Positions 4,808 to 25,519 of a stretch of 31,728 nucleotides of DNA are shown in pieces. A model generated the notes under the pieces. That model saw only the letters and a program-made list of their open reading frames with translations, searched no databases and had not been told where the DNA came from. The position numbers were made by a program, and so were the translations under genes. The stretch comes from a virus (lineage: Duplodnaviria > Caudoviricetes), in the IMG/VR virus record IMGVR_UViG_3300049050_000028, positions 1 through 31,728 of that record; one strand, 5' to 3'. Each line of letters begins with the position of its first letter. Within the stretch, counting starts at the first letter, position 1.

Positions 4808-4832
4808 GCTTTGCGTACTTGCAAAGCGTTTT
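4808..4832 (+). terminator. Putative intrinsic terminator after polA
   Basis: GCTTTGC-gtactt-GCAAAGC stem followed by GTTTT. Confidence 0.5.
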
Positions 4833-4848
4833 AGCGTTTGCTAAAGTC
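4819..4848 (+). promoter_or_regulatory. Sigma70-type promoter with operator-like palindrome
   Basis: TTGCAA-N17-TAAAGT with extended -10 TG; TTTAGC-GTTT-GCTAAA at 4830-4845. Confidence 0.75.
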
Positions 4849-9815: not shown

Positions 9816-9989
9816 ATGTTCGTCGTCAAGCTCATCGCCCAGGTGTTCGCCATTCTCGTGCTGCTGTCGCTCATCGGGCCGCTTGGCCTGCCGCCCGGCG
9901 GCGCCGCGCTCGTCGGCGCTGTGTGCCTCGGGTGGGGTGTGTGGCTACTGGTGTCGATCGTGCGGCATCTGACACGCCGGCGGGCTTGA
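9816..9989 (+). CDS. 57-aa two-helix membrane protein (absent from ORF track)
   Basis: AAGGAG RBS; MFVVKLIAQVFAILVLLSLIGPLGLPPGGAALVGAVCLGWGVWLLVSIVRHLTRRRA*. Confidence 0.75.
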   Translation: MFVVKLIAQVFAILVLLSLIGPLGLPPGGAALVGAVCLGWGVWLLVSIVRHLTRRRA

Positions 9990-10015
9990 CGAGTATTTTA
10001 GCGATTGCTAAAGTC
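9986..10015 (+). promoter_or_regulatory. Sigma70-type promoter with operator-like palindrome
   Basis: TTGACG-N17-TAAAGT with extended -10 TG; TTTAGC-GATT-GCTAAA at 9997-10012; 19/20 identical to 4829-4848. Confidence 0.8.
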
Positions 10016-10021
10016 GTCTGC

Positions 10022-10282
10022 ATGAACACTGCTACCGAGATTCAAGCCCGAATCGCCGAGCGGGAGCCGAGCTTCGCCAATCTGCAGGCGACCGTCGAGC
10101 GCGAAATCGTTGACCCCTTGGTGGGCAAGCTTTCGCTCGTCGCTTATGGGCGGGAGGTCTGCGCCCGTCGAGCGCGGAAGCTGCGCAAGCGCGGCGACAT
10201 GATCAGGTTCCATCGGTGGACGGCGACCGGCAAGTGCCGTTACATCTGGGTGCCAGGCGCACGGTGGGAGGTCTTCCTGTAA
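10022..10282 (+). CDS. Hypothetical basic protein, probably leaderless
   Basis: ATG 7 nt after the -10 box, no SD; TAATG coupling to next gene. Confidence 0.7.
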   Translation: MNTATEIQARIAEREPSFANLQATVEREIVDPLVGKLSLVAYGREVCARRARKLRKRGDMIRFHRWTATGKCRYIWVPGARWEVFL

Positions 10283-10506
10283 TGGAACCGATGTATCTCG
10301 ACCTTCCCCGCACCGCCGAGTTCATGGCCGTGTCAGTACGCACCTGGCAGAACCTCGTCCAGGCCGGCGAGGCGCCCAGGCCGCGCAAGCTCAGCGCGGG
10401 CCGCGTCGGCTGGCTGGTGAGCGAGCTGCGCGAGTGGGGCGAAGCGCGCCCCGTGTCCGACTTGTTGCCGCCTGCGAATAGCGGTCGGCGGAATGGAACG
10501 CCATGA
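10282..10506 (+). CDS. AlpA-family winged-HTH protein, probable excisionase
   Basis: AVSVRTWQNLVQAGEAPRPRKLSAGRVGWLVSELREW; close to integrase. Confidence 0.85.
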   Translation: MEPMYLDLPRTAEFMAVSVRTWQNLVQAGEAPRPRKLSAGRVGWLVSELREWGEARPVSDLLPPANSGRRNGTP

Positions 10507-10892
10507 CCACCCTAGCCCTGTTCTTCGCCACGAAGGGCGACGTGCTCGCCTGGGTCGAGCTCGAACCGCCGGGCGGCGAGTACATCGGGTTTCGCAGCCA
10601 CGTCGGCGCGCTGCGGCCGCTGCCCGAGGGGGTCGAGTACCTCATCACGATGCACGACGAGCCGCTGTTCCCGTGGCTCAAGCGCATCCGCGTCGACCGC
10701 CTGGCCTCCGTCATCTGGCCGGGCATCTCCCACCAGCTGCGCACCTACGGCGTGCCGCGCGTCGACGCGCAGAATCAGGCGCTGATGACGCGCGGCCTGT
10801 TCAAGCGCATCGTCGCCGAGCGGCACCTCGCCAACCTGGGCGAGGTGTGGGCGCTGCAGGGCGAGCTACTGCCTCAGCTCGCCAGCGCCTGA
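10503..10892 (+). CDS. Hypothetical protein
   Basis: ATGA overlap; GC-rich third positions; 3' end overlaps integrase 3' end by 19 nt. Confidence 0.75.
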   Translation: MTTLALFFATKGDVLAWVELEPPGGEYIGFRSHVGALRPLPEGVEYLITMHDEPLFPWLKRIRVDRLASVIWPGISHQLRTYGVPRVDAQNQALMTRGLFKRIVAERHLANLGEVWALQGELLPQLASA

Positions 10893-12151
10893 AGCCGATC
10901 GCTGAGCTTGCCCAGCCACAGCCGCCGCTCGCGGTCGTACTGGTGCAGGTTGTAGACGCCCTGCACGCCGGGCTGCATGTGGCCGAGCACCGCCTCGGCG
11001 ACGGTATCCGGGCACCCCATCGACGCCAGCATCGTGCGCACCGTGCGGCGCAGGTCGTGCGGCGCCCAGTGCGTGACGGGCAGCCGCGGCCGCTCATCCT
11101 TGGGCCTCGTCTTGCTGTAGGGCTGGCGGAAGTGCACCGCCGTCTGCACCGCCTTCTGCTCGAGGTGGCCCGCGCCGCGCGCTGCGGGGAATAGCCAGCC
11201 CTTCGGGTGCACACCCAGGCGCCGGCGCACGACGCGCTCGGCCTCGCCGAGCAGCGGCACGCGCAGGTCGCTGGCGGCCTCGTGGCGCGCGTTCTTCGTC
11301 TTCACCTTGGGGCAGGTCCACCACAGACCATCGGCCTCGTCTGTGACCTCGTGCGCTTCCATCTGCACGAGCTCGGCGCCGCGCGCCCCGGTCCACAGGT
11401 ACAGCGTCAGCACGTCGGCCACGTTGCGCGAGAAGTTCGGCAGCCAGCGCACCAGCGCCGCGACCTCGGGCTCGCGCAGCACGCGCTTGGCGGTGACCCG
11501 CTTGCCGGCGATCCTGTGCCCCTTCGACCGGAGCCGGCCGCGCATCACCTGGCGCCACCAGTTCGGCGCCGAGTCGGGCAGCCGGCCGGCGTCGAGCGCG
11601 TAGTCCCACGCGGCGCCGAGCTCCGTCCGCAGCTTCGCCGCTTGTACCGGGATGCCGGCGTGCAGCTCGAGCAGATCGAAGGCCTGCGATCGCGTGAGCG
11701 TGGCCGCCGGCTCGTCGGCCACCGTGGCGAGCATGGTGTCGAACATGCGCTTGACCTCGTCGGCGCCCTTCTTCTTTCGGTGCACCTTCACGTGGCCGGC
11801 GAGGTAGTCGGCGGCCAGGCGCCGCACGGTGTAGGCCTCCGCGCGCTGCGCGGCCCGCTCAGCGCTCGCCGCGGCGGCCGCCTCGACCCGGGCCTGCCGG
11901 CGCTCGCCGGCAGGGTCCGCGCCCGCCTCGCGCGCCTTGCGAGCCCGCTCCCAGGCGGCCAGCGCCGCCGGCAGCGCCACCTCGGGCCAGCGGCCGAGCT
12001 TGACCTGCTTCATCCGCCCATCGATCGGCGACTTGTAGCGATAGGTCCAGGTGCGGTGCTGCGCCGTGGCTTCCAGGCGCAGGCCCGGGCATCCGTCGAT
12101 GGTAAGGTGCGCCCCTGGCGCGAGTTGCTTGGCGGTGCGTGCGTCGAACAT
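10874..12151 (-). CDS. int: Tyrosine integrase with N-terminal arm-binding domain (P4-like)
   Basis: GCPGLRLE...WTYRY...LGRWP arm domain; TGAR, HDLRR, LGH and GVY catalytic motifs. Confidence 0.97.
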   Translation of the reverse strand: MFDARTAKQLAPGAHLTIDGCPGLRLEATAQHRTWTYRYKSPIDGRMKQVKLGRWPEVALPAALAAWERARKAREAGADPAGERRQARVEAAAAASAERAAQRAEAYTVRRLAADYLAGHVKVHRKKKGADEVKRMFDTMLATVADEPAATLTRSQAFDLLELHAGIPVQAAKLRTELGAAWDYALDAGRLPDSAPNWWRQVMRGRLRSKGHRIAGKRVTAKRVLREPEVAALVRWLPNFSRNVADVLTLYLWTGARGAELVQMEAHEVTDEADGLWWTCPKVKTKNARHEAASDLRVPLLGEAERVVRRRLGVHPKGWLFPAARGAGHLEQKAVQTAVHFRQPYSKTRPKDERPRLPVTHWAPHDLRRTVRTMLASMGCPDTVAEAVLGHMQPGVQGVYNLHQYDRERRLWLGKLSDRLQALAS

Positions 12152-12262
12152 GGCCGGCGTAGGTTCTGCCGACGATGGTAGCCGATGCAGCGTAGGTTTT
12201 TGCTGGAGCTAAGAAGAACCTACGCCAGCCCTCGGGGAGCGCATGCAGCAACGTGCGCGCAA

Positions 12263-12292
12263 TTGCCAAATTCCTTTACCGACTGCTAAAGC
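12263..12292 (+). promoter_or_regulatory. Promoter facing the att core, with degenerate operator-like site
   Basis: TTGCCA-N18-TAAAGC with extended -10 TG; TTTACC-GACT-GCTAAA at 12275-12290. Confidence 0.6.
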
Positions 12293-12305
12293 CTGAAGCA
12301 TTGCA

Positions 12306-12349
12306 AATCAACGAGTTGCCCGAAATCGGCTTTACAAATCAAGGGGTTG
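12306..12349 (+). promoter_or_regulatory. Two IHF consensus sites in attP
   Basis: AATCAACGAGTTG (12306-18) and AATCAAGGGGTTG (12337-49) both match WATCAANNNNTTR. Confidence 0.75.
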
Positions 12350-12441
12350 CGAAGGACCCTCTTTCCAACCACACGCCCATGATGCAGCAGCGCATTCACC
12401 TATGAGCGGCCGGGCCGCCAGGGCAGAACCTACGCCGAAAC

Positions 12442-12621
12442 CTACGCCGTCTTCTCGACGGGCACCATCTGCTCGAGCAGTTCCGCGGTGAGCCGCTGGC
12501 GCTGCTCGGCGTCGAGCAACACGGGCATGACGATCAGCTTCAGCGGGGTGGCGTGGATGTACCGCGCAAGCGCCGCGATGTCCTCGTCGGACAGTTCGCG
12601 GGGCTGCGGGAAGTCGGTCAC
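12442..12621 (-). CDS. Small hypothetical protein at end of lysis operon (59 aa)
   Basis: GTGA overlap with upstream stop; [21 protein letters not shown]... Confidence 0.55.
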
Positions 12622-13133
12622 TGCTTGCGCGCGAGAAGCGCGTTCTTCTCGGCGCTGCTGGCCGAGCTGCCGAAGTAGTAGCTGATGATCGACGCCCAGG
12701 CGCCACCCAGCGCGCCGAGCATCACCAGCAGCGCGTCGCCGCCGGTCTCCGGCTTGCCTTCGGTGAGCAGGTAGCCCAGCACGCCGAAGAAGCCGACGGT
12801 GACCAGGCCGGCCAGCAGGCGGGGCGTCCACGAGTCGCCGGTCTTCGCCTCGCGCTCGCGGGCGCTGGCGCGGTCGCCCTGGTGCAGCCGCTCGAGGTCG
12901 ATGTCGAGCTCGCGCATGCGCACGGAGAAAGCCTGGTCGGCCTGCTTCAGCTTGAGCAGCGCGTCCGGGCCGCCGGCGACCAGCGCCGCGGAGATTTCGC
13001 CTTCGGTCCCGTTCGGCTTGCCCAGCAGTGCGTCGGAGATGGCTGACACCGCCAGGCCGGCCAGGGGGCCGCCGAGCGCCGTGCCGAGCGCTGGCGCGAC
13101 GGCGCCCACGATCGCCTTCCAGTCGAAGCTCAT
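12618..13133 (-). CDS. Holin-like membrane protein (GTA 3TM-holin-like)
   Basis: [12 protein letters not shown]-terminus, DRASARERE, two C-terminal TM helices, YYFGSS; directly after endolysin. Confidence 0.75.
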
Positions 13134-13134
13134 G

Positions 13135-13602
13135 TCACACCCTTTTCAGGTTCTCGGCGACGCGCTGCGCCCAGCCGCGGCCGAAACTGGGCCAGGTCTT
13201 CAGGTCGTTCAGGTAGTCGAGCCGCCAGCCGTTGAACCGCGCGACCAGGCGCTCGGGGTCCATGCTCTGCGCGGCCTGCAGCGTGCGAGGCCCGAGGATG
13301 CCGTCGGGCGTCTCGCCGACGGCGCGCTGCAGCATCTTGATGGCCTCACGCACCGGCGCGTTCACGGCGGTATCGAACAGGTCGAACTTCAGCGATGCCG
13401 GTACGGCGTCGCATCCGGCCGGGCCCCAGTAGTCGCGCCGATAGATTTCCTTCGCGCGCTCGAGTGTCATGCCTGCGATGTTCTCGGTCGGGTGCGCCCG
13501 CCTGCTGATGCCGAACTTCGTCTCGCCGCCCGGGTCGTCGGGGTGGTTGACGTAGCCGCCCTCGTGGCCGATCAGCACCTTGAACGCTTCATCGAACGTC
13601 AT
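13135..13602 (-). CDS. Endolysin, glycoside hydrolase family 108 with peptidoglycan-binding domain
   Basis: [41 protein letters not shown]; ATG at 13602 overlaps upstream stop. Confidence 0.92.
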
Positions 13603-13856
13603 GCTGCCTTTCCCCCCAGGTGCTGCAACAGCCACGCCAGGCCGCCGCAGATGGTCGCGCCCGCGCCGCCGAGCCACATCATTGCTTTCCAGCCGCCGCG
13701 CGCCTCGCTGAGCGTTTCGAGCACGGTGTCGAGCTTGGCGCCGAGCGCCGTGTTCGCGGCCTGCAGTTCGGTGACCTGCTTGCCCATGAGCTCGACGGCC
13801 ATTTCCAGCCGTGCAATGTCAACTCGCGCTTCAGTTAGGGGGTCGCTTTGCGGCAT
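13599..13856 (-). CDS. Holin/XhlA-like coiled-coil protein with C-terminal TM helix
   Basis: Coiled-coil then RGGWKAMMWLGGAGATICGGLAWLL; directly upstream of endolysin. Confidence 0.65.
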   Translation of the reverse strand: MPQSDPLTEARVDIARLEMAVELMGKQVTELQAANTALGAKLDTVLETLSEARGGWKAMMWLGGAGATICGGLAWLLQHLGGKAA

Positions 13857-13873: not shown

Positions 13874-13901
13874 TTGACGACGTTTTACTTTTTTGTAAAA
13901 T
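13874..13901 (+). promoter_or_regulatory. Sigma70-type promoter for the SGNH lipoprotein gene
   Basis: TTGACG-N16-TAAAAT in an AT-rich gap; TTTTAC-N6-GTAAAA inverted repeat overlaps it. Confidence 0.65.
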
Positions 13902-16734: not shown

Positions 16735-16756
16735 CGGGCAGCCCTGTAGCTGCCGC

Positions 16757-16778
16757 GACTTTACAAGCTGCCAAAGTC
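16757..16778. promoter_or_regulatory. Degenerate operator-like palindrome upstream of tailspike
   Basis: GACTTTACA-AGCT-GCCAAAGTC; contains TAAAGT on the - strand. Confidence 0.4.
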
Positions 16779-16802
16779 GATATGCGAACGGCTAAAGCGC
16801 CT

Positions 16803-25063: not shown

Positions 25064-25519
25064 TCAGGCCCCCATCTCGAATCGGTAAAAAGTCACATCG
25101 CTCAGCCCCATGCGGCGTGGTTCGCGGATGCTGAAGCCGAGCCGGCGAAGCCATCGGATGCTGCGGGCGTTGCGGGCGTCCACGAAGTTTTCCAAATGGC
25201 TAAACTCGTTTTGCAAAACGCTAATGTAGCCGGGGGCCAGCCGCATAAGCGAACGGGAATTGCGGTCGAGAACGTCGGTGCCCAGCATCCACGGCGCGCC
25301 GCTGCCGCTCAGCAGGCAGCGCGGCACCGCGCCGAAGATGCACGCAAGCTCGCCGTCGACCAGGGCGACGGCCAGCAGCGCCGAGCGCTCGGCGCTGCGC
25401 CTGATCGTCTCGAGCGTATCGGGCCCGGACATCGCCACAATCTCGGCACGGTCGGCCGCCCGCAGGCGCGCGTCGAGCGCTTCGCAGTCGCCGGCGCGCA
25501 GCTCGCGGACCTCAACCAC
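25064..25519 (-). CDS. T7 gp13-like / GNAT-fold protein
   Basis: LRAADRAEI, PWMLGT, LENFVDARNARSIRWLRRLGF. Confidence 0.85.
   Translation of the reverse strand: MVEVRELRAGDCEALDARLRAADRAEIVAMSGPDTLETIRRSAERSALLAVALVDGELACIFGAVPRCLLSGSGAPWMLGTDVLDRNSRSLMRLAPGYISVLQNEFSHLENFVDARNARSIRWLRRLGFSIREPRRMGLSDVTFYRFEMGA

Follow-up and report, generated by a model that had tools for sequence, protein, structure and literature searches.

Does a phage that integrates into mutS bring this mismatch repair gene under the control of its own lysis-lysogeny switch? The question is raised by a virus record of the Caudoviricetes (IMG/VR record IMGVR_UViG_3300049050_000028), in which a predicted promoter that faces the phage attachment core overlaps a dyad of the kind found at the phage's early promoters. 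From this overlap, an earlier note on the same DNA proposed that host mutS would be transcribed, after integration, from a promoter bound by the phage regulator, so that the mutation rate could depend on the state of the prophage.

The stretch analyzed, called the window here, comprises 31,728 nucleotides (31.7 kb) of podophage DNA in which the genes are ordered as in Bordetella phage BPP-1, and its DNA polymerase is 49% identical to that of BPP-1. The left part of the window encodes a ssDNA-binding protein, the polymerase, a helicase, an AlpA-like excisionase and a tyrosine integrase, while genes for endolysin, tail and virion proteins occupy the minus strand of the right part (Table 1). The phage is present in its excised (attP) form, and DNA near-identical to the window is found in sequencing runs from soil and the rhizosphere, two of which may be its source. 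The cI/cro switch of BPP-1 is located ahead of the ssDNA-binding gene, on its upstream side, and the equivalent place lies beyond position 1 of the window; no homologs of the cI/cro genes of related phages were found within the window. Two other features of the early region are an 86-amino acid gene of no known family that is first in the excisionase operon (10022-10282, predicted to be leaderless), and at least 10 tandem 27-bp repeats (1901-2278) inside a 322-amino acid open reading frame (1457-2425); an early gene of BPP-1 likewise has a variable repeat region.

Table 1. Features of the att region and of related elements, in window coordinates.
Feature	Position	Strand	Remarks
Early promoter after DNA polymerase gene	4819..4847	+	perfect dyad (4830-4845)
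Promoter of xis operon	9986..10014	+	perfect dyad (9997-10012); ATG 7 nt after -10, predicted leaderless
AlpA-like excisionase / directionality factor	10216..10506	+	
Tyrosine integrase, mutS-targeting family	10874..12151	-	
Three integrase arm-type repeats, int side	12157..12225		12157-12165, 12190-12198, 12217-12225; same repeats in relatives
Predicted Xis-site region	12235..12270		in relatives, three ~11-bp-phased repeats here (by eye)
Predicted weak sigma-70-type promoter facing att core	12263..12292	+	-35 TTGCCA 12263-12268; TG 12284-12285; -10 TAAAGC 12287-12292
Operator-type dyad, cro-proximal (OR1-like) variant of phage family motif	12275..12290		overlaps extended -10
Replacement MutS N-terminus, 23 codons from TTG	12301..12369	+	
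IHF consensus site 1	12306..12318	+	
IHF consensus site 2	12337..12349	+	
att core region	12361..12390	+	30 nt common to mutS-reading contig of run X6
HTPMMQQ codons in core	12370..12390	+	
Two arm-type repeats beyond core	12427..12447	+	
End of late operon (unknown-function gene and endolysin)	12618..13677	-	att promoter faces these antisense in free phage

The site of integration could be established from the sequences themselves. The att region lies between int (start at 12151) and the late genes, and arm-type repeats flank the HTPMMQQ codons on both sides, so the site in the window is attP. Contigs of soil run X6 break at the core with a 30-nt overlap and branch at 12390, and one of them goes on with the mutS codons Y-L-R-I-K-A, which is also how mutS continues in integrated relatives. 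This contig represents either the right prophage junction or the empty site of the host and, whichever way it is read, mutS is the integration target, as the earlier note had claimed. No branch at the core was present among the matches listed in six other DNA runs.

Hundreds of mobile elements are known to occupy the HTPMMQQ motif of mutS, including prophages of Betaproteobacteria (Chu et al., 2017; PMC5296598). The core of the window phage lies in these codons, its integrase has relatives encoded beside mutS, and its att segment supplies an in-frame N-terminus for MutS, the frame being open from 12196 to the core; judged by these features, the phage is a member of the same class. Among 158 relatives of the integrase, 124 had enough upstream DNA for analysis and 62 of these matched the core pattern, which left a non-redundant set of 44 mutS att segments after near-duplicates and two false cores were dropped. 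When compared by eye, these relatives have a common att plan: the arm site is followed by three phased repeats and ~40 variable bases, and then come two IHF-type sites and the core. The two predicted IHF-type sites of the window are its only matches to the IHF consensus. The integrase family is also used for other targets, some with tRNA-like cores (upstream of int in L008, L030, L039, L050, L063 and others), and a BPP-1-like phage in which an integrase of another class faces attP also has a mutS core (L254:2338-3370).

Within att, the dyad occupies variable sequence that lies ~95 to 80 bases ahead of the core. It has one mismatch in 12 positions, as had been reported, and together with the perfect copies at 4830 and 9997 it makes up the complete list of sites in the window with no more than one mismatch; this single departure is the normal variant of cro-proximal sites. 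A weight matrix was built from 36 sites of related phages and gave the dyad 21.5 bits, which is the median of the training sites and the third-highest score in the window, although the matrix is partly circular in that its training sites were picked with a pattern derived from this dyad. None of 2000 dinucleotide shuffles of the arm-to-core segment reached this score, and the best score among the 44 other mutS att segments was 13.7 bits. In 20 further att segments, one phage (L506/L507) scored 17.6 bits by way of a conserved phased Xis-type repeat, and its own operators are of a different type from this match. The att dyad is real, and a chance origin is unlikely. No variation in the site was seen in the sequencing runs that were compared.

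The further possibility that the phage mimics the site of a host regulator was rejected, as the motif is absent upstream of native mutS (best score 9.6 bits at 30 Burkholderiales loci from a 151-genome sample). The upstream half-site that the earlier note had described scored -6.1 and is unsupported on its own; it falls inside the predicted Xis-site region, and no good second site was found near the att dyad by matrix scoring, second sites in relatives being likewise degenerate. A scan of viral contigs for the dyad alone returned 119 stretches, in which no protein matched the window, and the dyad plus the mutS core pattern gave 0 matches in metagenome contigs; a looser form of the combined pattern gave 31 viral matches, none of which contained a full dyad when inspected by eye. 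Elsewhere in the window, a second weak dyad (12198-12213; 2 mismatches) lies between two arm-type repeats and 47 bp from the int start, degenerate dyads (12.3 and 10.5 bits) occupy the short gap between a large virion gene and the tail-fibre gene (16745-16800), and others occur at 13884 and, within coding sequence, at 25189.

What protein might bind the dyad is suggested by its distribution in related phages. In these genomes, the motif T(T/G)TAGC-N4-GCTA(A/C)A occurs at early promoters, and further copies lie after cI and between the cro-like gene and the divergent cI-like gene; the cI-like protein of one relative (L215) matches the PHROG family 'transcriptional repressor' at 2.6e-14, and the cro-like protein has a weak match. 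The right half of the dyad forms the extended -10 of a promoter, and the left half at the cro promoter of relatives is usually TTTAC(C/A), the form seen at att. When the 23-bp att element was compared with 81 loci, the top three matches (19 of 23 positions identical) were all cro-proximal sites. In addition, a prophage that is integrated in mutS (L497) has near-identical dyads in its cI/cro gap and over its xis promoter, and the layout of the latter is that found at 9997 in the window, where the dyad covers the promoter of the operon that contains the excisionase. Since an excisionase promoter must be off in a lysogen, it is likely, from the relatives and from this xis-promoter dyad, that the lysogenic repressor, a CI-like protein, binds the dyad family. 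These findings support the assignment of the att dyad to the operator-type motifs of CI/Cro-like switches, and its geometry faces the core rather than int.

All 10 of the complete dyad-bearing relatives are without a tyrosine or large serine integrase, and 8 of the 10 have a cI-like gene; one phage (G017) has kept dyads and cro, and a cI homolog was not found in the stretches of it that were searched. The motif can therefore persist outside integrative lysogeny. A clade of 44-47 kb BPP-1-like phages (L188-L225, L260, L262; G003-G018) has a cI/cro pair and many operators but no tyrosine or large serine integrase in its 10 complete records, and possibly consists of phages with non-integrating lysogeny or of virulent derivatives.

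The promoter elements are found where the earlier note had placed them, and their layout is similar to that of the two early promoters, though not the same, as it had stated: the spacer is 18 nt rather than 17 nt long and the -10 ends in C in place of T. The -35 agrees with the consensus at 4 of 6 positions, and a T at the last -10 position, which is missing at att, is present in 67 of 96 family dyads read in one orientation, most of the others having a different geometry. A sigma-70 consensus scan of positions 11900-12700 returned 0 promoters, and the only candidate promoter for mutS found in the att segment is a predicted, weak one. RNA run X24 contains one 195-nt contig from this region (12265-12459; depth 2.9) that is of the attP form, unstranded and starts upstream of the predicted transcription start; it carries no weight as promoter evidence. 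The earlier proposal of a phage-regulated mutS promoter is supported in part: mutS is the target and an operator-type motif faces the core; the promoter itself is weak, and the predicted binder is not encoded in the window.

The TTG at 12301 is in frame, in agreement with the earlier note, and lies 23 codons before H-T-P-M-M-Q-Q. It has no Shine-Dalgarno sequence and is preceded by an extra A; in the leaderless genes of the family an ATG lies 7 or 8 nt after the -10, and the same place at att is occupied by A and then TTG. Other in-frame starts are GTG 12253, TTG 12316 and ATGs in the core, and an in-frame ATG is offered by 31 of the 44 other att segments. A 17-codon open reading frame in another frame (12243-12296), with a GGGGAG Shine-Dalgarno sequence, crosses the operator and stops 4 nt before TTG 12301; given a transcript start further upstream, it could couple translation.

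The orientation of these elements bears on the alternative, which the earlier note had itself named, that the site regulates only the divergent int gene. A minus-strand -35 hexamer with 5 of 6 matches does adjoin the dyad, an arrangement like that of the cI promoter in relatives, and a second, weaker dyad (8.7 bits) is present at 12198; against this, the corresponding -10 has only 2 of 6 matches, a distance of 124 bp separates the dyad from the int start, and the -10 geometry faces the core, so that this alternative appears very improbable.

How widespread an operator at this position might be was asked of 13 other mutS phages (L004, L005, L045, L267, L268, L282, L288, L349, L401, L492, L497, L507 and phage Aval), in which the operators could be recognized by visual inspection of the cI/cro gap. 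In none of them did att contain the phage's own operator with 2 or fewer mismatches (the best matches had 3-5), contrary to the notion that related mutS phages keep one there. The 13 include two BPP-1-like phages with the same integrase family (L268, L507) as well as L497, which has an almost identical operator at its xis promoter, yet none in att. The search for switches had covered 32 elements, with helix-turn-helix (HTH) matches in 13; those excluded from the operator test were L291, L286, L281, L064 and L379 (unreadable), RS-AB1, and L481, L484, L501 and L502 (without att DNA). A blind test for near-palindromic repeats in 29 elements, in which 2 of the 28 others matched the words of the window equally, was too blunt, and the per-phage operator tests were therefore used instead. 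By these sequence comparisons, the att operator is a trait of one lineage and not of mutS phages generally. This restriction, the weakness of the promoter, the TTG start that has no Shine-Dalgarno sequence, the poor score of the upstream half-site and the position of cI/cro outside the window argue against a general mutator switch.

That a single lineage has the site also fits a view in which a copy of a phage promoter replaced the variable part of att and the operator, which has no selected role there, was carried along because its right half is the extended -10. The close match to a cro-proximal promoter-operator, the loss of the last T of the -10 and the invariance of the site in the runs examined are all compatible with such a remnant; however, the left half-site, which is situated in the spacer of the promoter, is preserved intact in the family's natural form, and likeness to the switch region as a whole beyond the dyad is not significant. 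We consider this origin rather unlikely. A duplication of the entire switch region as the source of the att segment was likewise rejected as not significant (best p, 0.014 among 14 comparisons, with one control segment scoring higher).

The position of the dyad within att suggests another role, in recombination. A repressor on the dyad, with the excisionase repeats on one side of it and IHF site 1 on the other, could block assembly of the excision complex, or Cro could assist it, with any effect on transcription being incidental. The dyad is separated from the predicted Xis region by 5 bp and from the first IHF site by 16 bp, and it is better kept than the -10 box. The Cox protein of phage P2 is reportedly a switch protein that also binds att. 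A further precedent is Apl of phage 186, one protein that acts both at the lysis-lysogeny switch and at att (PMC7498355); Apl, however, is an excisionase and binds phased direct repeats, whereas the site described here is a dyad, and the window phage has a separate AlpA-like factor of its own that is already behind an operator. Moreover, L191 and L259, which bear the dyad and have other integrases, are without it at att. On balance, control of recombination seems an unlikely function for the site.

The reading that we prefer, and put forward tentatively as a real possibility, is that the replacement mutS promoter of this lineage was made from the phage's own cro-type promoter-operator, so that the phage repressor would damp mutS in the lysogen. 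Integration at the HTPMMQQ codons places a 220-bp phage segment in front of mutS. This segment gives the in-frame N-terminus and the sole promoter candidate found, from which mutS would be transcribed weakly. The CI-like protein, encoded outside the window, would then bind the dyad in the lysogen and, by analogy with the cro promoter of relatives, would be expected to block RNA polymerase by occupying the extended -10. Upon induction CI would leave, and a Cro-like protein may later silence the promoter in the free phage, in which the att promoter points antisense into the lysis genes.

The last of these steps could be the whole of the function. If the Cro-like protein bound the site well and CI bound it poorly, mutS would be expressed normally in the lysogen and the operator would stop antisense transcription into the lysis genes of the free phage. 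In its attP form the promoter does face the 3' ends of the late operon, the persistence in G017 of cro and dyads, with no cI homolog found in the stretches searched, would fit a site read by Cro, the att site is off the symmetric consensus and without a good cooperative partner, and the cost of a mutator host would presumably be avoided. On the other side, the variant present at att is the one found at the cro-proximal site of relatives that have cI, and there, by the logic of lambda, CI has to act as a repressor; in addition, the 13 other mutS phages do without such a site. A role limited to the free phage is, in our judgment, improbable.

Damping of mutS by CI, if it takes place, may or may not shift the mutation rate. 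It is doubtful that CI turns mismatch repair down while the phage is integrated to the extent that lysogens are mutators with a lower recombination barrier, in which derepression or curing restores repair, and a measurable mutator phenotype of lysogens is improbable. Silencing of mutS would mutate the prophage as well, a consideration that counts against damping.

The significance of the site depends on which function it has. Elements in mutS supply a start and a promoter region for this gene that perhaps answer to other cues, and the effect of an element-borne promoter on mutS expression was left open (Chu et al., 2017; PMC5296598); the phage described here offers a precise case for this question, in which the site measures 16 bp, its binder is predicted and the expected outcome is clear. 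If CI does damp mutS, a dormant phage would set the mutation and recombination rates of its host while it remains integrated; should the site serve to lock excision or to silence antisense transcription, it makes a smaller point about the design of att.

Several known systems share parts of the proposed arrangement, and the earlier view of it as a new system was overstated, given that a replacement promoter and its response to other cues had been put forward by Chu et al. (2017; PMC5296598) and that repression of host pckA by CI is known (PMC1151598). In the Chu et al. (2017) elements, which have the same target motif and supply a start and promoter, the mutator state comes from a 2-bp excision scar, as opposed to the control proposed here while the phage is integrated, and the word 'repressor' is absent from the main text of that paper. 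A search of open-licence papers and bioRxiv preprints found no described operator inside att that controls mutS. The phage-like element SpyCI of Streptococcus pyogenes controls mismatch repair by its integration and excision at mutL, and in one strain an element-borne promoter that is inhibited by mitomycin C rescues mutL; this promoter lies in a broken int gene, and the available text does not describe a repressor site on it (PMC3430984).

Other parallels exist at genes outside mismatch repair. At torS, a promoter near attP of phage HK022 replaces the native promoter of the host gene, as is proposed here, but expression is raised and host control removed, with no phage operator on the promoter mentioned in the text available (Carey et al., 2019; PMC6814406). 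Lambda CI binds the regulatory region of host pckA, and transcription of this gene is thereby reduced in lysogens (Chen et al., 2005; PMC1151598); the sites bound in that case belong to the host DNA and control is exerted in trans, whereas the promoter and operator considered here are phage DNA brought by integration. In this way, the proposed system would combine the promoter replacement of HK022 at torS with the repression of a host gene exerted by lambda CI at pckA.
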